From the NCBI GenBank assembly GCA_049976425.1, contig JBMFIG010000009.1, forward strand, positions 1 to 54,634: a stretch of 54,634 nt of DNA. The letters run 5' to 3'. The stretch is from Thermoproteus sp. (GTDB lineage Archaea; Thermoproteota; Thermoprotei; Thermoproteales; Thermoproteaceae). Position 1 is the first letter of the stretch, and each line of letters begins with the position of its first letter. Shown here in pieces: positions 8,222 through 54,169 of this stretch. The position numbers and the translations under genes are program-made. The notes below the pieces were generated by a model. The model was not told the DNA's origin and searched no databases. It saw only the letters and a list, made by a program, of their open reading frames with translations.

Positions 8222-8524
8222 ATGGCGAAGATGGTGGCCAGCCTATCGGTCACCCCTCTCGGCACGGGGTCCACGCACCTATCCGCCTACGTTAGGGCGG
8301 CTACAGAGGTCCTGAAGGAGATGGGGGTGAGGTACAGAACAGGCGCCGGCTTCACCGACGTAGAGCTCGACGACTACTCGACGCTGGCGGAGATACTCAA
8401 GAGGGTTGAGGACAAGCTGGCCTCCATGGGCGTCAAGCGCGTGGACTTCATCATAAAGATAGACAGGAGGATGGACGAGGAGCTCACCATAGAGGGAAAG
8501 ATATCGAAAGTGGAGAGGCGCTAG
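8222..8524 (+). CDS. MTH1187/YkoF (DUF77) thiamine-binding family protein
   Basis: SVTPLGTGS..LSAYV, G..T.VE, IKID.R.D..LT...K..KV. Confidence 0.85.
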   Translation: MAKMVASLSVTPLGTGSTHLSAYVRAATEVLKEMGVRYRTGAGFTDVELDDYSTLAEILKRVEDKLASMGVKRVDFIIKIDRRMDEELTIEGKISKVERR

Positions 8525-9203
8525 TCGCCGCGATGAAGGCAACTCTGCTGAGCTCGAGCAGATAGCCGAGCACGTCGCCGTTGGCGCCGCCCAGATGTTT
8601 ATACGCTATATAGTAGGCCGCCGCCGACAGCGCTAGCGCCAGCGAGGAGGAGGGATACGCCATTAAGGCCAGGGCGAGCGCAGGCGTTGCGAGAGGCCAC
8701 TTCCTCCTCACGGCGTTCACGAAGGCGGAGCCCAGCCCCTCCTTGAAGGGCTTGGAAAAGGCCGCAAGGACGACGACGAGCGACTTCGAGAAGATCTCGC
8801 CGAAGATCAACTGCCACGGACTCCTTAGATAGTTGACCGCCAGCGCTACTGCGGCGACGACGGCGAAGATCCCGGCGGTCCCTCTACGGGGGTCCTCCAG
8901 CGCGGCCCTAGCCCTCTCCCTATCCCTTATCATCAAGGCGTCGGCGGTGTCGGCAAGCCCGTCTAGGTGGTTGAGCCCCGTCAGCAGGAGCAGGAGGAGG
9001 TAGGCCGGGAGCGGCCCTAGATAGATCAAGGCCAGCGCGGACAAGCCGCCCAGGATAGGCGCCACGACGTAAGGCAACGCCCAGGCGCAGGAGAAGTCGA
9101 GCTCGGCCTTGACGGGCAGTACTGTGAAGAACCCGATCAACGCCCTTATGCACCGCCTGGCTCCCTCCCCGCCTTTAGGCCGGCAGGGCGCTACGCGCCG
9201 CAT
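8484..9203 (-). CDS. cobS: Cobalamin synthase (adenosylcobinamide-GDP ribazoletransferase)
   Basis: FFTVLP, TGLNHLDGLADTADAL, L.DPR.G..G, GGANGDVLG. Confidence 0.92.
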   Translation of the reverse strand: MRRVAPCRPKGGEGARRCIRALIGFFTVLPVKAELDFSCAWALPYVVAPILGGLSALALIYLGPLPAYLLLLLLTGLNHLDGLADTADALMIRDRERARAALEDPRRGTAGIFAVVAAVALAVNYLRSPWQLIFGEIFSKSLVVVLAAFSKPFKEGLGSAFVNAVRRKWPLATPALALALMAYPSSSLALALSAAAYYIAYKHLGGANGDVLGYLLELSRVAFIAATSASPLSISFPLW

Positions 9204-10105
9204 AGCGCCTTGATCAGCAAGTCGTCCTCCTCCCTCCTCTTTATCGAGACGCGGGAATAGCCCGGCATGCCCAAGTCGTCGAGAGGCCTCACCTTGACCT
9301 TGTCAGTCCGCCCCCTCACTATGAAGAAGTGGAGGCGCGACTTGACCACCTCGACGCACCGCGAAAGGGCCTCCTGCACCCTAGGCCCCTCGGCGGCGAC
9401 GTACTCGCGCGTGGCCTCTCTGTGCCTCTTCAGCGCCTCTGCGCCTATGTTGTATATCGCGTAGTCCGCCAACGAGTTGACCCGCCACGGCGACTTGACG
9501 TCCGGCCTCACCCGCCCCAACGCCGCCCCCAGTCTGAGGCCTGGCGCCGCCAGGATCTTCCCGTAGGACTTCACGACGGGCACGTCCGGCGCCGCCGACT
9601 CCTCGCGGACGAAGTCCAGGAAGGATTCGTCCACCAACAGACGCGCGCCGCGCGCCTCCAGAGCTCTGCTGAGCTCGAGGACCTCGTCGCGTCTCATCAC
9701 CGAGCCGGTGGGGTTGTTCGGGTTGCACAGCAGTAACAGATCCCCCGAGGCGGCCCTCTCCACCAGCGAGCTCAAGTCGCCTCTCACGACCTCGAGGCCC
9801 AGCAAGCCGGCTATACGTACGTAGTCGCTGTACGTCGGCCAGGGGAGCAACAGCCTTTTGGGCCTCAACGCCGCCATCATGGCGGTCAAGGCCTCTGTGG
9901 CTCCGTTGAAGAGGACGACCTCCACCCCCTCGTACTGCGCCAGCACCTCCTCGGCCAGATTCGCCGGGAACCTCAGATAGACCCCCCTCTCCGCCGCCTC
10001 GGCCACCAGCTCGGGGAGGCCCGGCGGAGGGCCTATGGGGTTTAAGTTGTCGCTGAAGTCCAAAACCGCCGGCTCGGCCCAAGAAGTGCCTCCGTGCACT
10101 CGCAA
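9191..10105 (-). CDS. cobD: Threonine-phosphate decarboxylase-like PLP enzyme (CobD/HisC family)
   Basis: HGG...LDFSDNLNP.GPP, NGATE, CNPNNPTG, VDESFLDF, KSYGK..APGLRLG; lies within the cob cluster. Confidence 0.85.
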   Translation of the reverse strand: MRVHGGTSWAEPAVLDFSDNLNPIGPPPGLPELVAEAAERGVYLRFPANLAEEVLAQYEGVEVVLFNGATEALTAMMAALRPKRLLLPWPTYSDYVRIAGLLGLEVVRGDLSSLVERAASGDLLLLCNPNNPTGSVMRRDEVLELSRALEARGARLLVDESFLDFVREESAAPDVPVVKSYGKILAAPGLRLGAALGRVRPDVKSPWRVNSLADYAIYNIGAEALKRHREATREYVAAEGPRVQEALSRCVEVVKSRLHFFIVRGRTDKVKVRPLDDLGMPGYSRVSIKRREEDDLLIKALCGA

Positions 10106-10129
10106 ATAGGCTCAAGTAAAAAATTTCCT

Positions 10130-11299
10130 TTAGCTGTACCCGAATAGGTTGGCTAGGTAGCTCTGCTCCCAATTGTCCTTGGCGAGGGTGTAGTCCCTCT
10201 TCGGCTCGGGGTCCTTGCTAGGCTTCGGCGGCTGGCTCGTGAAGTCTAGGCCGAACCTGACCGACAAGCTCTCCAGCCTCCCCTCGGGATTGCCCACGTA
10301 GGCCCATCCGACGAAAGCGTACTGAACCGACGCCCTGTAGGAGGACCCCTCCATCTCCAGTATCTTGTTGGCGGCGAACAGCGCGCTCTCGAACGCTATC
10401 TCCTGGTTCTTGGGGAACGGAAGGCCGGCGGCGTCGCCCACGGCCAACACGTCGTCGTATTTGGGATGTCTGAGGTCCTGCGGGCTCCTCACGTCGATCC
10501 ACGTCTTGCCCAAGCCAGCCTCCTCGACGAACTTAGGCGCTCTGTTGGGCTCGAGCATCGCGAGCACGTCGTATTTATAACGCTCGCCGGACTTCGTGAC
10601 GACCTCCCCCTCGCCTATCTCGACGATCTCTTGGTTCGTCACGAGCTCTATCCCCTGCCTTGAATATATCTGGGAGACCACGTCGGCGATCACCGGCGGT
10701 TGCATCTTGTCGTTGGCGTCTATGTGGACTATCTTGAACTTGTCCCGCACGCCTCTGCGCCGCAGGACCGAGTCTATGAGCAACGCCGTCTCGGTAGGGG
10801 CGGGGGCGCAACGGTACGGGGCCTTGGGGGCGTACACGACTATCGTGCCCTTCTCGGCGCTCCAGACCTTGCTCCTGAGCAGGTGGACGCGGCCTGGGTC
10901 GTAGACGTTCAGCACGTTGTGCCTATACCTGTCGTAGCCTGTTATGCCGGAGCCGTCCAGCACCACGCCGGGCGCAAGGACTAGGTAGTCGTAGGCGAGC
11001 TCGCCGACTCCGCCGCTCGACGTATAGCCGCCCACGTATCTGACCTTCCTGTTGGCGGGATCTACAGAGAACGCAGTGCCGACGACGACCTTCACGCCTT
11101 TCCTGACCGCCTCCTCGTACCCCCTCACTATTCTGTCCAGCGTCTGTTCCTTGGTAAGCAGTAGAGGTCTGCTCGGCCCCGAGAAGTAGTGCGGGCTCTG
11201 CGTGACGACGGTCATCTCGGCGTTGATTTTCCCCGATATCAACGTGTTGGCGACGATCATCCCCCCGATACCTCCCCCAACTATTACCACTTTCTTCAT
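10130..11299 (-). CDS. Sulfide:quinone oxidoreductase / FccB-like FAD flavoprotein
   Basis: [40 protein letters not shown]. Confidence 0.85.
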
Positions 11300-11413
11300 G
11301 AAACCGGATCTGATTTTCATTTTTAAATTTTAATCCGTAATAATAAATATTATAACAATTAATGTTAACACTATTTTTATTAATATTTATATTTATATTG
11401 TTTTATTCTACTT

Positions 11414-11971
11414 CTATTTATTTAATATCTCATATATTAAAAAGGAAGTCTCGGAGCCTATCTCCGTCGCCGCGCCGGCGTAGTGCGCGCCTCCCGGCGG
11501 CGCTACGACGAGCACGGCATCCGACGTGGTGCCCAACGACGGCCTCCCGCCGCAGAGGCCGCGGGCCGTCAACGTCGCCGCCTTGGCCTCGGCCGCCGTC
11601 CTGTAGAGGTCGAGAAGGCCTCTTCTGGAGAGAGGCGCCCGAGACACGACGAGTATATTCACCGTATGCCCCTCCCTGCTGTGCGCGGCGCCGATGCACG
11701 CAGGGTTGGCCAGGCCCACCGTCGCGTAGAGCTCCACGAGCCGGCCCTCGGCGTGTCTCATCTTCGATATGTCCGCCGCCGTGAAGAACACGGCCGCCCT
11801 GCCGACGAGGCCCAAGCTCTCCAGCAACGTCGATGCGTAGAGGTCGAAGTCCGCTATATACCTGTCCACCTGTTTGAAGACGACGTACCTCACCTTCTCG
11901 AAATCGCCGCCGAGGACCACGTTGCCTAAGGCGAGCAGGTCGCGGCCTAGGTCCAACACGAACAGGGTCAA
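11414..11971 (-). CDS. cbiZ: Adenosylcobinamide amidohydrolase
   Basis: FTAAD, ATVGLANP, TVNILV, TAAEAKA, GTTSDAV, YAGAAT. Confidence 0.88.
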   Translation of the reverse strand: MTLFVLDLGRDLLALGNVVLGGDFEKVRYVVFKQVDRYIADFDLYASTLLESLGLVGRAAVFFTAADISKMRHAEGRLVELYATVGLANPACIGAAHSREGHTVNILVVSRAPLSRRGLLDLYRTAAEAKAATLTARGLCGGRPSLGTTSDAVLVVAPPGGAHYAGAATEIGSETSFLIYEILNK

Positions 11972-12954
11972 GATCCGACGAGCCTCTCGTACTCCTGCTC
12001 CACCATCTCGAGCACCGGCAGGCCGCGGAGGGAGGCGAGGTACAGCGCGCCGCCCAGGGCTACGCCCTCCTTGACGTATCCCCGATCGTAGTATCTGAGC
12101 CCCGGAAAACGGGACGCGGAGAACGACGCCCTGGTCACCTTGATGTTGGCGACGCCGACTGCCCTCGCGAGGCCGAAGAAATCTGCCGACCTATCGTCGG
12201 CGATCCACCCCGTGGTCGCCACGGTCACCTTGGCCAGATCGCCGCCGAGGGCTTTAATGATGGCGGCCGCGGCGAGCATCTGGGTGCCGCCGGCCAACAC
12301 CGGCGCGCCCCCTGCGTCCAACACGCCGAGGGCGATGGCGGCGACGCCGACGTGGACGGGATCGCCCAGCTCCGCCAACGCCTTTATCGGGTCGTCCAGC
12401 CGCCCGGCCCTCGTGAACCCCTCCTTGACCACCGCCGTCTTGAGATCCTTGGGATTGTCGGGGCCAGCCGACGAGGTCTTGCCCCAGGCGTCGTACCCCA
12501 ACGCGACCAGTATCGCCATAGCCGTAGTGGTGCCGCCCGGTATGGACTCCCCTATGAAGACGTCGCCAGCCTTGGCCAGCTCGCGGCCGAGGATCCTGCC
12601 GTTCTCCAATATGTTCTCCACAGCCGTCTCGGAGAGGGCGGGCCTCTTCCTGAAATCCCCGCCCGGCTCCCCGCCGAGATCTATGTAGGGCACCTTCGGC
12701 CTCACTCTGCCTCCCGCGAAGGCCACAAGCTTCGGTATATCGCGGGTCAACGCCCTCGTCACGACGGCGGGGGTCGGTATGCCGTCGGGCGTCACCGGTA
12801 TGCCGGGTATGCTCTTGGGCCGCCCCGTCAAGAGGTACTCCACGTCTGCGGCGGGCGTGTAGTGGGTGAGCTCGGGCGAGGCCCCGGCTATAGTTATGCC
12901 AGGTATCAGCGAGATGTCCGTTGTCCCCACAACGACGACTATTAAGGGGTTCAT
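11968..12954 (-). CDS. cobT: Archaeal nicotinate-nucleotide:base phosphoribosyltransferase (MJ1598-type CobT)
   Basis: IPGITIAGA...YTPAADVE, PTPAVVTRA, GESIPGGTTTA, LAGGTQM, Y..GYVKEGV..GG. Confidence 0.9.
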   Translation of the reverse strand: MNPLIVVVVGTTDISLIPGITIAGASPELTHYTPAADVEYLLTGRPKSIPGIPVTPDGIPTPAVVTRALTRDIPKLVAFAGGRVRPKVPYIDLGGEPGGDFRKRPALSETAVENILENGRILGRELAKAGDVFIGESIPGGTTTAMAILVALGYDAWGKTSSAGPDNPKDLKTAVVKEGFTRAGRLDDPIKALAELGDPVHVGVAAIALGVLDAGGAPVLAGGTQMLAAAAIIKALGGDLAKVTVATTGWIADDRSADFFGLARAVGVANIKVTRASFSASRFPGLRYYDRGYVKEGVALGGALYLASLRGLPVLEMVEQEYERLVGS

Positions 12955-12983
12955 AATAGGGACAAGAGACCCGTTTATTAGGT

Positions 12984-13445
12984 TTACCAGTCCAGGCCCT
13001 TGACGCCGATGATCCCCCTCGAGTAGTAGTGTTTGACCGACCTGACCTCGGATATCAGATCCGCCGCCATGAGCTCGGCGTAGTTGTGGTTCCCAGTCAC
13101 CACGACGTGGGCCCCCAAGCCGAGAAGCCTCCTGAAGTCCTCAGGCCTCAAGAAGCCCTGCCTGACGGCGTAGTTGAACTCGTCCAGGATGACCAAGTCG
13201 TAGCCGGGGGCTATCGCCAAGGCCTCCTCGAGGAGATCCCTAGGCGTCTTGTGGTCCTCCAGATACAACGTCTTGACTCCCAGCCTCCTCAACGCCTTGT
13301 ACTCGCCCACGTAGTCGTCGAGATACCTCGGCGTCTTCATGGTAAACACAGCCAAGATCCTCATGTCGTGTCCCCAAGCCCTCAACAGAAGGCCCAACGC
13401 GGCCGTCGTCTTGCCCTTCCCGTCGCCGGTGTAGGCGAGGATCAT
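12984..13445 (-). CDS. cobO: Cob(I)alamin adenosyltransferase (CobO/BtuR)
   Basis: YTGDGKGKTTAALG, YDLVILDE, VVVTG, ADLISEV..VKHYY..G. Confidence 0.92.
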   Translation of the reverse strand: MILAYTGDGKGKTTAALGLLLRAWGHDMRILAVFTMKTPRYLDDYVGEYKALRRLGVKTLYLEDHKTPRDLLEEALAIAPGYDLVILDEFNYAVRQGFLRPEDFRRLLGLGAHVVVTGNHNYAELMAADLISEVRSVKHYYSRGIIGVKGLDW

Positions 13446-13472
13446 GCGCCCTCCGCTTCCTATTTATATAGG

Positions 13473-14366
13473 CTAAATGGGATCGCACCTGAGCGGCCTC
13501 ACGCGGGCCAAAAAGCCGATATCGGCCTCGACGTGGTCCAGCTCCGATACGTGGACGCCGTTGTAGTAGTGGCGGGTGGCCCTAACGCCGAGCCTGACGC
13601 CGCGGGAGGCGGCCGCCAGCACGGCCAGCTTGGACACCTCGTTGCCGTCGCCGTCCCTCACGTCGATGCGGGAGTAGTCCAGAGGGACCACAGGCGCCGG
13701 CAGCCCGCGCTCCGCCAACGCGCTGAGGCGGTGGTGTCCGTCCAGCACGGTACAAGTCCAAGCGTCGACGGCTATCGGCCTCACCGTACCGCCCAACGCG
13801 GGCACGGACTCCACGTCTTCATGGGGCAGAAGGGAGCCGGGATCGACGAATACGGGGTATATGGGGCCGGTACAGCCGGCTAGGGCCATCCAGCCCTCCC
13901 TAGTATCCACGTCGACTAGGTCAGGCATACTTACGTCGACCCACCTAGCGGTGTCGCCGCTAGGTAGCCAGGTAAGGCCCACGTAGCCCCCCGCGCCTAC
14001 CGCCGTGGACATGAGCGGCTTGGAGATCAGCCTCGCGACGTGGTTAGGCGTCAGAAAAGGCAGATCGCAAGCAGCCACCACGGCGGGCGCGTATGGGAGG
14101 AGCTCGGAGAAGTCCAGCTCGTACCCTCGGCCCTCGGTATACACCACCTCCATCCCCCACAGCCTGGCCAGCCACGCCACGGGCCCGTGCGACCTCGTCG
14201 TGGCCACCACCAGGCGGGAGGAGAAGGGCTGTAGCGCGGTGGCTACCCTCAACATCATGGGGACGCCGCAGACCGGTCTCAAGCACTTGAAGGGATCGCC
14301 GAACCTGGCGCCTCTGCCGCCGGCCAGTATCACGCCGGTTACGCCGTCGCCCACCGCCTCTCCCAT
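13473..14366 (-). CDS. cobY: CobY-like nucleotidyltransferase fused to a C-terminal ParB/SerK-like domain
   Basis: N-term ILAGGRGARFG..K.L..V.G.PM, ACDLP, VDVDT; C-term LLPHE, VLDGHHR, P.V.LDY, RATRH. Confidence 0.8.
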   Translation of the reverse strand: MGEAVGDGVTGVILAGGRGARFGDPFKCLRPVCGVPMMLRVATALQPFSSRLVVATTRSHGPVAWLARLWGMEVVYTEGRGYELDFSELLPYAPAVVAACDLPFLTPNHVARLISKPLMSTAVGAGGYVGLTWLPSGDTARWVDVSMPDLVDVDTREGWMALAGCTGPIYPVFVDPGSLLPHEDVESVPALGGTVRPIAVDAWTCTVLDGHHRLSALAERGLPAPVVPLDYSRIDVRDGDGNEVSKLAVLAAASRGVRLGVRATRHYYNGVHVSELDHVEADIGFLARVRPLRCDPI

Positions 14367-22345: not shown

Positions 22346-22805
22346 ATTGTTGCGGCTGTTTTCCGAGCATCTTGAGCAGGGCGAACGCGACGCCTAGGCC
22401 TCTCTGCACGTCCGGGTCGTTCAAGGCGCTGAGCAGGCCCCATATGCCCTTCACCGGCTTGGGGCTCGCTATCAGGTCGGGCGACGCGTTCTTGCCCAGC
22501 CTCACTATGAGCTCCTGCATGGTCGCCTTCACGTTGAGTATGTCGGGGGTCTCCAGCTTAGACATGGCGCCCAAGGTGCCGTCGACGCCGATAGATAACA
22601 AGCGGAAGACGGCGGGGTCCTGGAACAGATAGTGTATCAACTCCTCGAAGCGGTTGACCACTATCATCATCGCGTCCAAGACGCCGGATCTCTTGAGCTC
22701 CAGCAGTTGGTCCAGCAGGCTCTGCAGCTCGTCTGCGTGCTCGGCCAAGGTCTTCAACAGCTCCGCGAGCTTCTGCTCGGCCTGGGGAGAGGTCTGCGCG
22801 CTCAT
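22344..22805 (-). CDS. DUF1641 family protein (common SQR partner)
   Basis: L..LKRSGVLD and C-terminal PKPVKGIWGLLSALNDPDVQRGLG; start ATG overlaps the SQR stop. Confidence 0.85.
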   Translation of the reverse strand: MSAQTSPQAEQKLAELLKTLAEHADELQSLLDQLLELKRSGVLDAMMIVVNRFEELIHYLFQDPAVFRLLSIGVDGTLGAMSKLETPDILNVKATMQELIVRLGKNASPDLIASPKPVKGIWGLLSALNDPDVQRGLGVAFALLKMLGKQPQQ

Positions 22806-23971
22806 ATCGTTGTCGCCAGCCATGTCTTGTAGAACAAGTCCTTTATTAACTTCCCCAGCGGCGACTTCAGTATGCTGTAGCAACTGCCCATCCAGGCGGC
22901 CTTGTTGTTGGCGAGATCCAGCTTTATGTCGCAGTTGAACATCATGCCGAACTCGCCGTAGTCCATGGCGCAAGTCATCGCATTTATCTGGGCGGGGTCC
23001 ACCGGCTCTCCCAAGATCTCGCCGGCCACCATGTTGGCGCTCGCCATGGCGGTGAAGTGGACCGGCACGCCGGCCGTGGGCAGGCCTATCGCGGGCATGC
23101 TGTGCTCTCCGGGGAGGTAAACGTCGTCGTACTTGACGCTTCTGCCCGTCAACACGTTTATGGCGGTCCACGTGCCGTTGGGGAACTGCGCGGTCAGTGG
23201 AGTCCCCTCGAACGGCTTGGGTAGCCTAGAGGGCGGAACCACGACAAGCAAGTCGTACTTCACCTTCTCGCTACCGGCCGTCACGGTCTTCGTCTTCTCG
23301 TCGACGGGGCCGGGCTGGGTCACTCCCCCTATGTATTTGATGTTCTTGGCCGCGAAGGTCTCCAGGGTTATCTTCACCGCCTCGGGCCCGAGCGGCTGGA
23401 TCGGGCGCTGGAACGGATGTATGAGAGTTATGTCGACCTTGTCCCTTATGCCTCTCTTCCTGAATATGGCATCGAGCTGCCCCACTATCTCGAAGGGATA
23501 TACGCCGTATCTGTAGACGGGCTCCGGCGTGTAGACGACCACGCTCCCTCCGTGGAAGTTGGCCAGGGCCTCCTTGAACTTGAGGGCCCCGTCTAGGGTG
23601 TAGTTGTGGTTCCCCGCCGCCAGGTTGTAGGACTTGAAGTCGAAATCGGTGCCGAGGCTCGCGATGAGGTAGTCGTACTGGAACTTGCCTTGGTCCGTCT
23701 CCACGGTCCTGTTGTCGGGGTCTATCTTCTCGACGGTAGCCTTGACCGTCTTCACGCCTCTATAGGCAAACCGCGAGAGGGGCAACATGGCCTGTTGGGG
23801 CGATATATCGCCGAACGCTATGTTGACGAGGAGCGGCGGGAGCAGGTAGTAGTCGGTGTCGCTTATGAGCGTTATCTCCACGTCGGCGCGGCCGCGCGTC
23901 CTCTCCGCGATCCTCTTGGCCGCGACGACGCCGCCGACCCCTCCACCGAGTACCAGTACTTTCTTCGGCAT
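22802..23971 (-). CDS. Sulfide:quinone oxidoreductase-like FAD flavoprotein
   Basis: VLVLGGGVGG, YDYLIASLG, RKRGIRDKV.I, YDLLVVVPP; operon with DUF1641. Confidence 0.85.
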   Translation of the reverse strand: MPKKVLVLGGGVGGVVAAKRIAERTRGRADVEITLISDTDYYLLPPLLVNIAFGDISPQQAMLPLSRFAYRGVKTVKATVEKIDPDNRTVETDQGKFQYDYLIASLGTDFDFKSYNLAAGNHNYTLDGALKFKEALANFHGGSVVVYTPEPVYRYGVYPFEIVGQLDAIFRKRGIRDKVDITLIHPFQRPIQPLGPEAVKITLETFAAKNIKYIGGVTQPGPVDEKTKTVTAGSEKVKYDLLVVVPPSRLPKPFEGTPLTAQFPNGTWTAINVLTGRSVKYDDVYLPGEHSMPAIGLPTAGVPVHFTAMASANMVAGEILGEPVDPAQINAMTCAMDYGEFGMMFNCDIKLDLANNKAAWMGSCYSILKSPLGKLIKDLFYKTWLATTI

Positions 23972-24053
23972 GTGAGACCTCATCGGCACCTATTTAAGTA
24001 TTAATACCTAGGACTTTTCATTTTTCCGATAACAGAACAAAATCCTGTTTCTG

Positions 24054-25735: not shown

Positions 25736-26278
25736 ATGGACGTAGAAGTAGGCGGAGTGAAGGTCCGCTTTATATCTTGGCCCGAGGCGATAGAGATGTC
25801 TGAGGCGTTGGGCAGGAAGGTGCTGGAGAGCGGCTTCAAGCCCGAGATAGTGCTGGCGGTCTCGCGCGGCGGCTTAGTTCCGGCGAGGATCATAAGCGAC
25901 GTCCTCGACGTCGACAACGTAGTCACAGTCGCGGTGAAGTACTGGGCCGTCGCGGAGCGGAGGGCGGAGAGGCCGGTGTTGTACCACGGGGTGGAGCCCA
26001 GCGTCGTGGGAGGCAAGAAGGTGCTGGTCGTGGACGAGGTAGCTGATACGGGAGCCACCTTGAAGCTCATCGTGGATCTCCTAAACGTCATGGGCGTGGC
26101 CGAGGCCAGGACGGCCGTCCTCCACGTCAAGTCGACCAGCAGCCTCACGCCCGACTACTACGCGGAGAGGGTGGCCGAGTGGGTCTGGATATCCTACCCG
26201 TGGAGCCGTTGGGAGGACTTCAGGGAGTTCAAGAAGAGGGGCTACGACATAACCAAGTATATTGAGAGGATCTGCTAG
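25736..26278 (+). CDS. Purine phosphoribosyltransferase (Gpt/Hpt type)
   Basis: AVSRGGLVPA, VLVVDEVADTGATL PRPP motif, PDYY, WISYPW. Confidence 0.9.
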   Translation: MDVEVGGVKVRFISWPEAIEMSEALGRKVLESGFKPEIVLAVSRGGLVPARIISDVLDVDNVVTVAVKYWAVAERRAERPVLYHGVEPSVVGGKKVLVVDEVADTGATLKLIVDLLNVMGVAEARTAVLHVKSTSSLTPDYYAERVAEWVWISYPWSRWEDFREFKKRGYDITKYIERIC

Positions 26279-27036
26279 GCCTTTTCGAGAAGCTCCTCGT
26301 AGCCGCAGTTGGGGCAATAGAGACGCTCCACGACCTTGTAGATCCCGTTCTGTATCTTCGCCGTCCGCTCGACCACCTTAAGCCGCGAGAAACACCTCGG
26401 GCAGCTGTACTCCGTGGGCCTATACGCCCCGGCGGCCGCCAGCACTCTGCGCACTTCGTAGGTCGATAGGCCGAAGGCCTTGCCTATATCCCTCAACGAA
26501 GCGCCTCCGGCCCTCATCTCGACTATCTTGGCCACGACCTCCGGCGGAAGCCTCTCGGCGACGTTCGATATCTTCCCGGCCGCCTTAGCCCTCTCGAGAG
26601 CCGCCTTGGTCCTCTGCCTGATGAACTCGCGCTCCATGGCCGCCACGAACGCCAGCACGGCGCGCAGGAACTGCCTATACATCCCGTCGACGGTCTGCAA
26701 CGCCTGCTCCCTCTCGGAGGCCGAGACGACGACAAGCCCCATCTTGTTCTCGACGACGTCCAGCAACTGGAAGAGCTCCTGGAAGGATCTGACGAGCCTA
26801 GAGACCTCGTAGACCAACAAGACCTTGGGCCTCGGCTCGAGGGACGAGGCCTCCTCCATAAGCCTCCTGAACGCCGGCCTGGTCCAAGGCTCGGTGGCGC
26901 CTGAAACCCCCACGTCTACATAATGCCGCAGTATCGTCAGGCCGTGCGCCGGCGCCCACTTCTCCAAGTACTCGCGTTGGTTCTCGGGGTCCTGGCCCTC
27001 GGTGGATACGCGTATGTACGTGACGGCCGGGATCAC
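26275..27036 (-). CDS. Serine recombinase (resolvase/invertase) with HTH and C-terminal Zn ribbon
   Basis: YIRVST..Q...Q, D.GVSG...RP, SRLVRS, ER..IRQRTKAAL; HTH GASLRDIGKAFGLS; CPRC...CPNC. Confidence 0.92.
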   Translation of the reverse strand: MIPAVTYIRVSTEGQDPENQREYLEKWAPAHGLTILRHYVDVGVSGATEPWTRPAFRRLMEEASSLEPRPKVLLVYEVSRLVRSFQELFQLLDVVENKMGLVVVSASEREQALQTVDGMYRQFLRAVLAFVAAMEREFIRQRTKAALERAKAAGKISNVAERLPPEVVAKIVEMRAGGASLRDIGKAFGLSTYEVRRVLAAAGAYRPTEYSCPRCFSRLKVVERTAKIQNGIYKVVERLYCPNCGYEELLEKA

Positions 27037-49990: not shown

Positions 49991-50408
49991 CCCAACGGCA
50001 CAAGACAGCCGAGTATTAATTTTTTAGCCTTCTGGCATATCAGCGCTCGGAGACTGGCCTCGGCTGTGGACGGCCGCCGGACCTGTGCCGGAAGCTGACA
50101 CTACTTGCGTGCGGCCCAAGGCGAAGAGGTGGGGAGGACATGAGAAAAAGTTGCTGATGGCCGCAGAAGCCGCCAAAACCTGCATCGAGGTGATCAGGCG
50201 GACTCACCGACGACCCCATAGACGTAGCCCTAGATGGAGCTGGCACACACGTAACGTCTATAAAAGTAGAGGACTAAAGATGCAGTTAAGCTAATTCTAG
50301 ACGCTCCTATACTGATTTATCAAGAATTTTTATATATAAATCTCTATATAAATACGATAAATTTCAAAAATTTGAGGGATTCTTTTCACTGCCTGATATG
50401 CTGATGTG

Positions 50409-51602
50409 TTAGAAATTGAGCACGCGTCTTAGCCTTTCACGTGCCCTCTTGTCTGACTCGTATGGATCCTCCGTCTCTGCGGGATCTACTCTTATGAGGT
50501 GTAGATTTCTACCGTCGCGTAGATGTAGCGTTGCAACGCCTTCTTTCTCCATATACCTATAGAGCTCTGCAATGCTTCTCTCCTCGTCGTCTAGTGGCGT
50601 CCCCTCAATCGCAGGGAAGATCAAAATACCGGCGTCAGCCGAGTACTCGTACATATAGGCCATTGTCTTAAATCTGCCCAAGGCGATGTAGGAAGGTGAT
50701 GTGGAGAATTTTGTCTCCACCACAATCCTTACATCGCCGTCTTCTACAAAGACGTCAGGCCTCCCCCGGTGCAGTCTGGCGTCATTGCCGTTGTATCTCT
50801 CCACCAGGGAAGAGGTCAGCGGTTTGTTGAAGTAAATTAGGATACACTTGTTACCCTTCTTGAGGGTGAGATCCGGCTCGTCGGCTCCGGCTCTAGGACA
50901 CGCCGTTTCCTCGAATCCCGCGTTTTTGAACACATCGTAGATGAGGAAGTATGTGTATACCTCGTAAAGCCTCCAGTCGCGGAATACTACCTCTTCACCT
51001 AACCCAGCGGCGCGTCCGATCTTTACGGATCTTTCCAATGCCTTTACAAACCTATTGATTAAACACGCTCTGCGTAGCCACTCTATGTATTCAACATCTC
51101 CGCATTCCAAACTAGTCGTCCCGCTTGGGAAATGGCGCAGGAGTCTAGCTATTCCTTCCAAGAGCCTCGCCACCTCTTCGTCCCCGGCGGCCATGCGCCT
51201 CGCGGCGTTGAGCGCCTCTCTCGCTACACGCCGCATTAGCAGATACTCGGGCGCGTGTCTAGACGGGAGATAGGTGAGCGACGCGACTAGACGCGACGGC
51301 CTTACCGCAATACTCCTAGCGACGTCGATAGCCCCTTCTAGATCCGCGCCGTACACCACGCCGAATTCGCGGTAGACGAGTTTTTCTCTCAGCGCTCTCT
51401 CAACCTCAATCCTCAGAAGGCTCAACGCGTATTTTAAAGCCTCTAGGGCTAGGTCCTTAAAAGAAGCGGCGAGCGCCTCCTCCTCGTCGGCTCTGCGCAT
51501 TAGGCTTTCTATTATCTTGATGTCGGGCTGGCGATAGTAACGGAAGTATCTACGCCCTACCAACAGACCGAGGTTGCGCCTCCTTATCTCAGTCTTGTTC
51601 AC
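50409..51602 (-). CDS. mcrC: McrC-like PD-(D/E)xK nuclease subunit
   Basis: G.IDV.RS, LYEVYTY, RPDVFV....IVVETKF, K.MAYM; immediately downstream of mcrB. Confidence 0.8.
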   Translation of the reverse strand: MNKTEIRRRNLGLLVGRRYFRYYRQPDIKIIESLMRRADEEEALAASFKDLALEALKYALSLLRIEVERALREKLVYREFGVVYGADLEGAIDVARSIAVRPSRLVASLTYLPSRHAPEYLLMRRVAREALNAARRMAAGDEEVARLLEGIARLLRHFPSGTTSLECGDVEYIEWLRRACLINRFVKALERSVKIGRAAGLGEEVVFRDWRLYEVYTYFLIYDVFKNAGFEETACPRAGADEPDLTLKKGNKCILIYFNKPLTSSLVERYNGNDARLHRGRPDVFVEDGDVRIVVETKFSTSPSYIALGRFKTMAYMYEYSADAGILIFPAIEGTPLDDEERSIAELYRYMEKEGVATLHLRDGRNLHLIRVDPAETEDPYESDKRARERLRRVLNF

Positions 51603-51605
51603 GCC

Positions 51606-53000
51606 CTAGCGGTGTCCTCTTCCTAGGAGGTACTCCTTACTTCCCAACATCGCGTTTATGACCGTCTTCGCATCGACTCTCCCTCTGTCGAGATTTTTCA
51701 AGAGCTTTAGCGCGGCGATTACCGCCGCAGGCGGCACGCAACCGCCTAGCTCCTCCACCGCTTTCCTAATCTCCTGTTTTACCTCCTCAGGTCCATCGAC
51801 TCTGTCGATATAGGAGTCTACTTCTGGACACTCTGTCTTAACTATTACAAATCGCCGGAGGAAAGCCTCGCCGGTAAGGAAGAGGTTTCTCCAATCTTTT
51901 ATGTTCATAGTGGCTATAACCCTAATAAGTCTCAATGGTAAGTCCTTATATTTTCTATAATATTTGACAAACTTTTTTGAATCGTCGTCTACTTTATCGC
52001 CGTAGGCCTCGATTTCCTCTACTAGGCTTATTGGGATGCTCCAGTCGTCGCAGAGCTGAGTGCGAAATATTGCGAAAAGATCGGCGAATGCCTTATCGAT
52101 GTCGGCTCTGTTTACCTCGTCGAGTATAAGGAACACGGGTTCAGACAAGCCCCTCTCCAGCATCTCAGCCGCCATGTTATAAGCCTTTATGAAAAGCCCA
52201 GACCTCCAGAACACGCCGTCTGGCCCAAGAGACTCCCCGCCTATTACGTCCCTGCGGAACCAGAGAGAATGGGCCACGGCGATGATGTGGTTACGACTGC
52301 CTGGCGCCGCGGCTAACTCAGCAATTCTCTTGGCGAGAGCGGTCTTGCCAGTGCCGGGCGGCCCGGCGAGAAGGACATTTCCCGCCTCCAACGCCCCGAG
52401 GAGCAGGTCTAGGTCAACTGTCTTGGCAAAGAATTCTTCGCGTAGCCTCTCTCCTAACTTCCTAATACCGCTGAGGGGGCACTCAACACTTCTTGTGTGA
52501 CTGGCCACGTAACCGACGGACTGGGCGAGTTCCGCTATTTTTTCAACCAATCTGCAGTCTATTACTTCGAGAGACCCCTGGAACGTGGGGAATTCAATTC
52601 CTTTGCCGTACTCAGCCTCGGGAAGCCACAGCCTCGCCTTAATGAAAAACTTGTAATCCCAGCCGGTGCCCTTGGGCCAATAGTCGCATTTACACTCTCC
52701 AATAAGATCCTCCTCACTTACCTCCCCTACGAGCACAACCCTCCTGCCCAACTCGCTTCTCCTACGATCATCCGGCTTCTGCGATACCCCAATTACATTT
52801 ACGCTACCTGCTTCCACTACCTTTCTTTCTAGCTCTTCGTAAAGTTCTCTCCTCCCAAACCCCCACAGAACTACTCCCGCTTTCTTCTTCTCGATTTTTT
52901 GCTTGCAGTTCTCTGGACATCCCAAACTCAAACTGTCTCTATTGATGTCATTAAGCGAGTGGTACCAGTTCTCATATGCGCCTTGGATCACGAAACACAT
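51606..53000 (-). CDS. mcrB: McrB-like AAA+ GTPase with N-terminal EVE/PUA-like domain
   Basis: GPPGTGKT, ILDEVNRADIDKAF, IATMNIKD (NxxD), AFLRRF; N-term ENW...LWG...YWP..W.YKF.I. Confidence 0.88.
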   Translation of the reverse strand: MCFVIQGAYENWYHSLNDINRDSLSLGCPENCKQKIEKKKAGVVLWGFGRRELYEELERKVVEAGSVNVIGVSQKPDDRRRSELGRRVVLVGEVSEEDLIGECKCDYWPKGTGWDYKFFIKARLWLPEAEYGKGIEFPTFQGSLEVIDCRLVEKIAELAQSVGYVASHTRSVECPLSGIRKLGERLREEFFAKTVDLDLLLGALEAGNVLLAGPPGTGKTALAKRIAELAAAPGSRNHIIAVAHSLWFRRDVIGGESLGPDGVFWRSGLFIKAYNMAAEMLERGLSEPVFLILDEVNRADIDKAFADLFAIFRTQLCDDWSIPISLVEEIEAYGDKVDDDSKKFVKYYRKYKDLPLRLIRVIATMNIKDWRNLFLTGEAFLRRFVIVKTECPEVDSYIDRVDGPEEVKQEIRKAVEELGGCVPPAAVIAALKLLKNLDRGRVDAKTVINAMLGSKEYLLGRGHR

Positions 53001-53030
53001 AATCTGAATTAAATACGGGATGTTATATAT

Positions 53031-53954
53031 ATGAGGCCAGAGGCGTGGTTAACTAGAGAGGTCGCGCCCGGAATCACCCTAAAAGATCTCGCCTGGGCGC
53101 TTTACAGAACGGGGGCGTACCGGCCGCCGACAACTGAGTCGGAAATGATAGCTCTGCGCAAGATTCAGGTAAGGACTGCCGAGGGCCTAGGCAGAGGCCT
53201 TTCCAGAATAGTCCCCAAAATGCCCTACTCGCTCGGTAATAGAAAGATAGGTAACATCTGGAGCTTTGATCTCCCGCCCGTATTGACGTGTCCCTACGCC
53301 ACCTTTTGCGGCAGGTCTGGACCCCAAGGACTTTACAAAGGTAAAGGTTATATATGTTATGATTTAAACACTGCACGTTATAGCAAGCAACACCTCCTAC
53401 GCGAATATCTAAACTATATCCATATAGTGAAGGAAGGCTACGAGTGGCTGAGCGGCTGGACTAAGTTTGTGGTGCACAACCGCGGCGCGCGGATCATACG
53501 ACTGCATGTGGGCGGTGATATCTTTTCGGCGTGGTACTGGGATTTTTTAAAAAGGCTGGCGGGGGAGTTCCCCACCACAACTTTTTACCTATATACACGA
53601 TCCTTCCCAATAATTGCGGCATCTCCAGAGAGGCCCAAAAACCTCGTTGTCCTCATGTCGCTTGACGCGGCCAACTTCAGCTATCTAAATAAGTATGGCG
53701 AGTATTTCGATAACATAACCTATCTGCTGGCTGGAGAGGAGGCCGAGGCTCAGATTCCGTTGATCAGAAAAGCCGCTGAGTGGGCGGAGAAGAGGGGGAA
53801 AAGGCTTGTAGTTTTCCTAGAGCATAGTAGGAGAAAAAGTCTCATAAAGAAGATGGGGACTTTGAAAAAATATATATGTCCTAATGAGATGGGCATAGGG
53901 TTGACGTGTGAAAAATGTAGAATATGTTTCACAAAAAGCTCTAACCATCTGTGA
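53031..53954 (+). CDS. GP88-like Fe-S / radical-SAM-like protein
   Basis: GNRKI....SFDLPP..TCP..C...CY, IRLHVGGDIF, FYLYTRS, P.NL.V.MS.D, C-terminal Cx9Cx2Cx2C. Confidence 0.7.
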   Translation: MRPEAWLTREVAPGITLKDLAWALYRTGAYRPPTTESEMIALRKIQVRTAEGLGRGLSRIVPKMPYSLGNRKIGNIWSFDLPPVLTCPYATFCGRSGPQGLYKGKGYICYDLNTARYSKQHLLREYLNYIHIVKEGYEWLSGWTKFVVHNRGARIIRLHVGGDIFSAWYWDFLKRLAGEFPTTTFYLYTRSFPIIAASPERPKNLVVLMSLDAANFSYLNKYGEYFDNITYLLAGEEAEAQIPLIRKAAEWAEKRGKRLVVFLEHSRRKSLIKKMGTLKKYICPNEMGIGLTCEKCRICFTKSSNHL

Positions 53955-54169
53955 AGTTGAATACTATCTTCGTCGCCTCGTATTTTCACCATCAATAAAT
54001 AACCTACCGGAACCGATCACCACTGCGGTGGGCATGTTTGAACAACCTCTATATACATCGGTCGGCTGCGTGCCGGATATTACCAGCGGTGTGCGGACAG
54101 CGGAGCGCACGTCATAGTAGTAATTAAATCTACTATGTATCTCCTACTGCTTTTAAATAAGGTCTATAT

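Follow-up and report, generated by a model that had tools for sequence, protein, structure and literature searches.

Where do archaea obtain the L-threonine phosphate from which the linker of cobamides is made? The source of this compound is a recognized gap in archaea: the L-threonine kinase (EC 2.7.1.177) is listed as a "pathway gap" in a curated review of haloarchaeal annotation (PMC8305020), and where a general review treats this step it names only PduX and BluE (PMC7242693). The question is raised by one gene in a 54,634-nucleotide (nt) stretch of Thermoproteus sp. DNA (contig JBMFIG010000009.1; hereafter the window), whose source genome is 99.4% complete. The open reading frame (ORF) lies at 13473..14366 on the minus strand, opens with ATG and encodes 297 residues plus a stop codon; its translation includes ...VFVDPGSLLPHEDVE...TVLDGHHRLSALAERGLPAPVVPLDYSRIDV...VSKLAVLAAASRGVRLGVRATRHYY. 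A previous reading of the letters and their ORFs (the original prediction) had proposed that CobY is fused here to a SerK/SbnI-like domain that supplies a phosphorylated amino acid to CobD. The ORF appears in the ORF list exactly as described, and the PHE (residues 181-183), DGHHR (209-213) and TRH (264-266) motifs were confirmed as written with script-checked coordinates. On our best reading of the sequence, the gene would encode a bifunctional enzyme of cobamide nucleotide-loop assembly, with the following parts:

13473..14366, minus strand: whole fusion ORF, a CobY-like nucleotidyltransferase followed by a SerK/SbnI-like kinase domain (ORF list, translation).
13887..14366, minus strand: N-terminal domain, residues 1-160, a CobY/MobA-type nucleoside triphosphate (NTP) transferase, presumed GTP:adenosylcobinamide-phosphate guanylyltransferase (PF12804, Foldseek).
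13476..13871, minus strand: C-terminal domain, residues 166-297, a compact SerK/SbnI-family kinase-like domain with a ParB/sulfiredoxin fold and no Pfam model.
13818..13826, minus strand: PHE motif, P181-H182-E183 (profile alignment with SerK entries).
13728..13742, minus strand: DGHHR motif, D209-R213, aligned with the DGHHR of SerK (SerK residues ~69-73; alignments).
13569..13577, minus strand: TRH motif, T264-R265-H266, aligned with the C-terminal KTTRH of SerK (second matched stretch, SerK 201-227).

Thirteen full-length homologues of 260-297 residues were found. Every named source among them is Thermoproteus or Pyrobaculum, and their database names refer to the NTP-transferase or CobY part only. 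The full-length AlphaFold2 model is confident, with a predicted local distance difference test score (pLDDT) of 91.9 and a predicted template modelling score (pTM) of 0.90.

The identity of the C-terminal domain is the first part of the answer. No Pfam model matches this part of the protein (from about residue 166), even at E<=10, and a search of the PDB with the single domain sequence gave a single match, to free serine kinase 5x0b, whose E of 2 is not significant, so that a profile was needed. Two alignments were used: A1, comprising the query and its 13 full-length homologues (14 sequences), and A2, comprising 30 domains, of which 29 are from further loci, detected when 120 genomes of the class were searched in six frames. 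The A2 profile matched SerK 5x0b in the PDB with E=1.3e-15, the Pyrococcus furiosus homologue 1vk1 with 1.3e-14 and SerK mutant entries with ~1e-14; SbnI followed at E=4.8e-4. The profile thus puts the likeness to SerK far beyond chance. The AlphaFold2 model of the domain alone (pLDDT 95.7) agrees with this: its nine best Foldseek matches are all SerK or SbnI, and its overall fold is a ParB/sulfiredoxin-like core with a C-terminal helix-strand part bearing TTRH, as in SerK and SbnI. The motif order and homology claimed by the original prediction are thereby supported. A DNA-binding ParB CTPase or nuclease was also considered and rejected, since SerK and SbnI match better in both the profile and Foldseek searches; the nuclease in question, a ParB-domain protein of a Sulfolobus plasmid, reached only 2.9e-3 against the 1.3e-15 of SerK. 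Nor does the protein have the build of a ParB clamp, whose N-domain is followed by a helix-turn-helix DNA-binding domain and a dimerization domain, or its closest similarity among ParB, Noc and KorB. There was no match to the GHMP kinases in the domain, by fold or by motifs; if it is a threonine kinase, it must therefore lie outside the PduX/BluE family.

The residues expected to matter for catalysis are retained. H182, E183, D209-R213, Y231 and H266 are invariant in 14/14 full-length homologues and 30/30 domains, T264 is nearly invariant, and R265 is replaced by W in Pyrobaculum (TWH). The core motifs are identical between fused and free-standing forms, and DGHHR is conserved at 95-100% across 163 other family members. 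At the profile position of E183, the PDB entries read PHE in 5x0b, PHQ in 5x0j and PHA in 5x0e; as the latter entries are titled E30Q and E30A, E183 corresponds to the SerK residue that the depositors chose for mutation. This residue, E30, is reported to be the catalytic base of SerK. The full architecture of SerK (~240-250 residues, including the segment between the DY motif and K..TTRH) is not reproduced: the profile aligns with SerK 17-115 and 201-227 only, leaving ~85 SerK residues without a counterpart in a domain of 132 residues. Given this length, and given that most members of the wider family do not exceed 200 residues, the sequence places the domain in a compact subfamily, distinct from canonical SerK. 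Its membership of the SerK/SbnI-type ParB-fold kinases is nevertheless strongly supported by sequence, fold and motifs.

The N-terminal domain has a MobA-like NTP-transferase fold, as seen from a PF12804 (NTP_transf_3) match over residues 11-116 (E=1.3e-16) and from Foldseek, in which the first PDB hit of the full-length model is Methanocaldococcus jannaschii CobY (3rsb; E=7.7e-8, TM 0.69 on the target), followed closely by MobA and Rv0371c. Known CobY proteins consist of one domain only and have about 180-200 residues. The fusion protein scores 15.9 bits against a cut-off of 250 with the CobY equivalog model NF045495, which was built from methanogen sequences, and 38.2 bits against a cut-off of 151.85 with the MobA model TIGR02665. 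As the equivalog cut-off is not reached, the CobY assignment is a presumed one that rests mainly on context and co-occurrence. The genome contains eight NTP_transf_3-like regions, one of which, elsewhere, scores higher (126.9 bits) and is the better candidate for MobA.

Is the fusion a peculiarity of this genome? We sampled 29 genomes of the family; these are close relatives, and the counts below measure consistency rather than independent events. Strong CobY matches (E<=6e-42) occur in 21 of the 29, and in all 21 a single ORF holds both CobY and the SerK-like domain (in one case a contig end truncates it), so the fusion is conserved among relatives, a point on which the original prediction could have failed. 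CobD orthologues (E<=1e-99) are present in 18 of the 21 fusion genomes and were not found in any of the 8 non-fusion genomes. The three fusion genomes without CobD are 61%, 91% and 93% complete, their cob contigs end beside the missing gene, and all three have CbiB, which was present in 5/5 fusion genomes tested. CbiZ follows the same pattern (19/21 fusion versus 0/8 non-fusion genomes). CbiD was found in 10/21 fusion and 0/8 non-fusion genomes, which indicates that the fusion serves de novo producers as well as pure salvagers. Conversely, the SerK-like domain is missing from 7/8 family genomes without cob loop genes, the exception being one free-standing copy in genome G119, and no second copy of the domain was found in the source genome. 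A FastTree phylogeny of 187 domain sequences placed the 24 fused domains in one clade (SH-like support 99) on a stem of 0.92 substitutions per site. One fused clade on so long a stem points to a single fusion event with later divergence. A further genome, G118 (80% complete), has a truncated CobY-like ORF of 193-211 residues with a weak SerK-like match at its end (contig C8, 3122-3764; locus L044, 3135-3713). Its neighbors are genes for a thiolase and a tRNA synthetase, with no cob context, and it may be what is left of a decayed fusion gene in a genome that lacks cob genes.

In the window, the fusion gene heads a run of seven co-directional genes (8484-14366) with gaps of -13 to 93 nt. The six that follow it are:

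12984..13445, minus strand: cobA/btuR, ATP:corrinoid adenosyltransferase, 27 nt downstream of the fusion gene (PF02572, E=5.1e-32).
11968..12954, minus strand: archaeal-type cobT, nicotinate mononucleotide (NaMN)-dependent phosphoribosyltransferase (NF003368, 455.9 bits, above cut-off; TIGR00303, E=2.4e-94).
11414..11971, minus strand: cbiZ, adenosylcobinamide amidohydrolase of archaeal cobinamide salvage (PF01955, E=1.6e-32).
10130..11320, minus strand: sulfide:quinone-reductase-like flavoprotein, 396 residues (Pyr_redox_2, FCSD_central; NF049943, E=1.1e-36, below cut-off).
9191..10105, minus strand: cobD, L-threonine-O-3-phosphate decarboxylase, 304 residues (TIGR01140, E=1.8e-47 over residues 9-268, below cut-off; Aminotran_1_2).
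8484..9203, minus strand: cobS, adenosylcobinamide-GDP ribazoletransferase, overlapping cobD by 13 nt (PF02654, E=2.9e-37; TIGR00317, 108.8 bits).

Neither CbiD nor CbiC was found in the genome, and its GATase_3 matches are weak only, in ORFs of 228-260 residues; cbiB is present on another contig. As CbiD and CbiC are missing, the organism does not build the corrin ring and salvages corrinoids via CobA, CbiZ, CbiB, CobY and CobS. CobD can then serve only the salvage route through CbiZ and CbiB, which requires aminopropanol phosphate, and since CobD makes this compound from L-threonine phosphate, a threonine kinase is required.

No established kinase for this step came to light. PduX, BluE and DabA are described as GHMP kinases (PMC10906522), and the genome has five GHMP_kinases_N genes, assigned by NCBIfam models to mevalonate kinase, archaeal shikimate kinase, homoserine kinase, pantoate kinase and a galactokinase-like protein, the last two both below the NCBIfam cut-offs. 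The original prediction had noted that the cluster lacks pduX; this is correct, and as far as the GHMP family was searched no kinase of the PduX/BluE type is found anywhere in the genome. The galactokinase-like gene was tried as an alternative threonine kinase and rejected, as it occurs in 13/21 fusion and 4/8 non-fusion genomes and does not track the cob genes. CobD itself carries no extra kinase domain, the decarboxylase model covering residues 9-268 of its 304.

We therefore turn to the fused domain as a possible source of the phosphorylated amino acid. In the proposed scheme, the N-terminal CobY domain would convert adenosylcobinamide phosphate and GTP to adenosylcobinamide-GDP, and the C-terminal domain, as a stripped-down member of the SerK/SbnI family, would phosphorylate the side-chain hydroxyl of free L-threonine, possibly L-serine, with ATP or ADP. 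The catalytic base would be E183, with the DGHHR and TRH motifs holding nucleotide and phosphate. From the resulting L-threonine phosphate, the clustered CobD would form (R)-1-amino-2-propanol phosphate by decarboxylation, which CbiB would attach to adenosylcobyric acid, here coming from CbiZ-mediated cobinamide salvage. The domain would in this way act as a non-orthologous replacement of the GHMP kinases PduX and BluE. Threonine is placed ahead of serine because CobD enzymes normally use threonine phosphate; serine, and hence a nor-cobamide, is possible.

How far this scheme can be trusted depends in part on what the relatives of the domain do. The A2 profile found 2094 cluster representatives at E<=1e-3, 1341 of them at <=1e-10, and matched in 233 of 401 genomes sampled from the phylum; 130 of the 149 best-matching representatives that were scored are of 200 residues or fewer. 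We thus observe a large unannotated family of "mini-SerK" proteins, of 120-180 residues. Some of its members are tandem duplications (450-650 residues), and others are fused to pyridoxal phosphate (PLP)-dependent PALP enzymes (P0018, P0121), to a hexapeptide transferase (P0100) or to methyltransferase, SET or AMP-binding domains. Among nine loci of free-standing members in the class, a PALP gene is the neighbor at three and a PhoU/MazE-like gene at six. Fusion to, or proximity of, PALP enzymes is expected of kinases that make O-phospho-amino acids, and the pattern agrees with a family of small-molecule kinases whose products often go to PLP enzymes, as is the case for SerK and SbnI. In its entirety, the family is not confined to cobamide synthesis. 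Separate from it are weak ParB-like matches of ~215 residues, found in a sister family of the order (g7), which were dropped as non-orthologous and not cob-related. Such ParB_N proteins (L040-L042; genomes G074, G071 and G073) lie beside a TtuA-like PP-loop ATPase gene in 3/3 loci examined, near citrate synthase, and may form a different functional subfamily tied to tRNA thiolation; a fourth distant ParB-like match (G002) adjoins a ThiS/Urm1-like gene.

A second link between the mini-SerK family and loop assembly emerged from Ignisphaera. A pattern scan of a species-representative genome collection, derived from the 12-row alignment A3, returned 76 loci, six of them Thermoproteus or Pyrobaculum fusions and 70 others. 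At two Ignisphaera loci (L126, 1435-7610, plus strand; L159, 2255-8237), a complete co-directional cobT-cbiZ-cobY-cobD-cobS-cbiB series is followed by a free-standing family member of 181 residues, which starts 23 nt after cbiB at the end of the operon. The cobY of this operon is unfused (182 residues) and its cbiZ forms part of a fusion (365 residues). At a third Ignisphaera locus, there are no cob genes within the 8 kb available. Ignisphaera thus provides a second, architecturally different link, in which the adjacency may be partly accidental. As the partner there is not CobY, the case that the Thermoproteus fusion must reflect consecutive steps is weakened.

Taking this together, we prefer to read the C-terminal domain as an amino-acid O-kinase making L-threonine phosphate (or L-serine phosphate) for CobD, and hold this reading with about even confidence: it fills a step that the pathway visibly lacks, the characterized family members all supply a PLP enzyme by phosphorylating a free hydroxy-amino acid, and it explains why the domain occurs only with cobD, cbiB and cbiZ. 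Of the original proposal of a threonine or serine kinase feeding CobD, the part concerning homology and fold stands on the profile and Foldseek results; the functional part is plausible and consistent with pathway logic and the phyletic pattern, and it is from these that we infer an active kinase, its threonine (or serine) substrate and its nucleotide donor. Several observations weigh on the other side. The SerK of Thermococcus kodakarensis is reported to be specific for serine, with no use of threonine (Makino 2016, PMC5120207); the C-terminal domain does without the ~85 SerK residues outside the aligned stretches (SerK 17-115 and 201-227); and nucleotide use within the SerK/SbnI family is not settled. 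Across the phylum, cob genes were found within 7 kb of free-standing members in 0/40 loci sampled, one weak aminotransferase match aside, and only 2 of the 70 loci outside Thermoproteus and Pyrobaculum had cob genes, both in Ignisphaera. Even there, the protein belongs with the generic free-standing members (in blastp, the highest-ranked fused sequence stands at 158/187) and retains the convergent PhoU/MazE-like neighbor seen beside other free-standing members, so that its cob adjacency could be incidental. A threonine kinase of an unrecognized kind may also be encoded elsewhere in the genome. Finally, the fusion partner is CobY and not CobD, and the logic of consecutive steps points to a cobinamide kinase.

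This last point leads to the main rival, a serious one that the original prediction did not consider: the C-terminal domain could phosphorylate the aminopropanol hydroxyl of adenosylcobinamide and pass the product to the fused CobY, as a non-homologous analogue of CobU/CobP. The would-be product is the very substrate of CobY, the target hydroxyl is chemically the former threonine hydroxyl, and the confident two-domain model (pTM 0.90) is compatible with a fixed arrangement of both active sites; the genome is that of a corrinoid salvager without CbiC or CbiD, and the long stem of the fused clade (0.92 substitutions per site) is consistent with a change of substrate. Yet the alternative archaeal route is kept in these genomes (CbiZ in 19/21, CobD in 18/21, CbiB in 5/5 tested), and a cobinamide kinase would make CbiZ, CbiB and CobD redundant for cobinamide salvage while a source of L-threonine phosphate was still needed. 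Moreover, the Ignisphaera family member is located after cbiB and unfused to CobY, the fused and free-standing forms have the same core motifs, and all characterized family members act on a free amino acid, which leaves this rival unlikely in our view. A somewhat smaller probability goes to the domain not being a pathway kinase at all: it might be a general free-serine kinase of serine/cysteine metabolism that is merely fused, or a nucleotide-binding regulatory or scaffold domain modulating CobY. Free-standing relatives are indeed common (233/401 phylum genomes; 2094 cluster representatives) and lie mostly beside PALP or PhoU/MazE-like genes, not cob genes; a ParB fold can be a nucleotide-binding module without kinase activity (PMC12704722); and with no other copy of the domain in the genome, a general serine-kinase role would fall to the fusion. 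For a housekeeping serine kinase, however, it is unexpected that the domain is tied to cob loop genes within the family and missing from 7/8 genomes without them (the exception being G119), and the invariance of the catalytic glutamate and all core motifs argues for catalysis over mere binding. Least probable of all is that the domain phosphorylates some other small hydroxyl compound used in loop assembly, for example free (R)-1-amino-2-propanol or alpha-ribazole, and so supplies CbiB or CobS. Such a kinase would explain the strict linkage to loop-assembly genes equally well, and the fold is a general scaffold for small-molecule or sulfinic-acid phosphotransfer (SerK, SbnI and sulfiredoxin are among the Foldseek matches), but CobD (for aminopropanol phosphate) and CobT (for alpha-ribazole phosphate) are both clustered, so neither salvage kinase is needed, the L-threonine phosphate gap would be left unfilled, and the SerK/SbnI family offers no precedent.

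Several features around the cob genes deserve mention in their own right. The flavoprotein gene (10130-11320, minus strand) sits between cbiZ and cobD and has a paralogue-like Pyr_redox_2 gene at 22805-23989; in a related Thermoproteus locus (L093), cbiZ and cobD are separated by a comparable distance. The flavoprotein could be a corrinoid reductase serving CobA, or be unrelated. A xanthine/uracil-family permease of 486 residues (PF00860; 14492-15952, minus strand) is encoded 125 nt upstream of the fusion gene in the same direction, and a purine-base permease adjoining loop-assembly genes might have a bearing on the lower ligand. The CbiZ of the window, called as an ORF of 185 residues within an open frame of 258, also matches NF038002, a model of bifunctional CbiS, over its N-terminal half, and in most of the Pyrobaculum-type genomes (G092-G108) the CbiZ matches fall within open frames of 333-436 residues, which suggests CbiZ fusions in this sister genus. 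Elsewhere in the window, G+C is ~0.50 over 50001-54000 compared with about 0.58-0.65 in the remainder, and a serine-recombinase (Resolvase) gene (26278-27036, minus strand) lies between ribosomal-protein genes.

The amino-acid O-kinase reading can be extended, more tentatively and with somewhat less than even confidence, to a general proposal: that the C-terminal domain is the missing archaeal L-threonine kinase (EC 2.7.1.177), a ParB/sulfiredoxin-fold solution to this step, and that the mini-SerK family consists of free hydroxy-amino-acid kinases feeding PLP enzymes in cysteine, cobamide and other pathways. With a conserved fusion in a lineage that has neither a second copy of the domain nor a PduX-like gene, one small protein makes the question directly testable. 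Should the substrate be threonine, the SerK/SbnI scaffold can switch its specificity among hydroxy-amino acids, the threonine kinase step becomes annotatable in Thermoproteus and Pyrobaculum genomes, and the enzyme would be a further independent solution after GHMP-type PduX/BluE and the CobD kinase of Methanosarcina mazei. Serine would mean that these archaea may make nor-cobamides, and cobinamide that an archaeal CobU analogue exists, contrary to the accepted picture; any of the three, if true, would give this unannotated domain its first function. No account of this fusion, or of a threonine kinase of the SerK type, turned up in the literature searched on SerK, SbnI, L-threonine kinases and CobY/ParB. 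Makino et al. (PMC5120207) state that clear-cut SerK homologues were not found outside four genera, and CobY, NTP_transf, MobA and cobalamin partners all go unmentioned in the main text of a ParB-fold survey from 2025.

Comparison with characterized systems shows how the fusion differs from each of its possible counterparts. For the N-terminal domain, the best structural match is CobY of M. jannaschii (3rsb, 2mzb), which has a like type of gene neighborhood and shares only 14% identity with it. For the C-terminal domain, SbnI, the ATP-dependent free L-serine kinase of staphyloferrin B synthesis (5uje, 5ujd, 6nr6), has 16-20% identity and is longer at ~250 residues. SbnI is also said to dimerize and to have a regulatory role. 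SerK (T. kodakarensis TK0378; 5x0b, 5x0e, 5x0g, 5x0j, 5x0k; P. furiosus 1vk1) has 242 residues compared with ~132, and its residues ~116-200 are absent here. The C-terminal domain is fused to CobY in a cob cluster and is not encoded with serine or cysteine genes, and SerK is reported to use ADP and to reject threonine (PMC5120207).

Among the enzymes of the cobamide pathway, PduX and BluE (and also DabA; EC 2.7.1.177) carry out the same reaction as proposed here, from L-threonine to L-threonine phosphate for CobD (PMC7242693), with a GHMP fold that is unrelated to that of the C-terminal domain. The bifunctional L-threonine kinase/L-threonine phosphate decarboxylase CobD of M. mazei (MM2060) is likewise an archaeal kinase fused to a cobamide enzyme (PMC9986279); in that case the kinase is on CobD, whereas here CobD is a plain protein of 304 residues and the extra domain is on CobY. 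The bacterial adenosylcobinamide kinase/guanylyltransferase CobU/CobP likewise joins a kinase and a guanylyltransferase in one polypeptide (PMC7242693), but CobU is homologous to neither domain of the fusion, alongside which the archaeal CbiZ route is retained.

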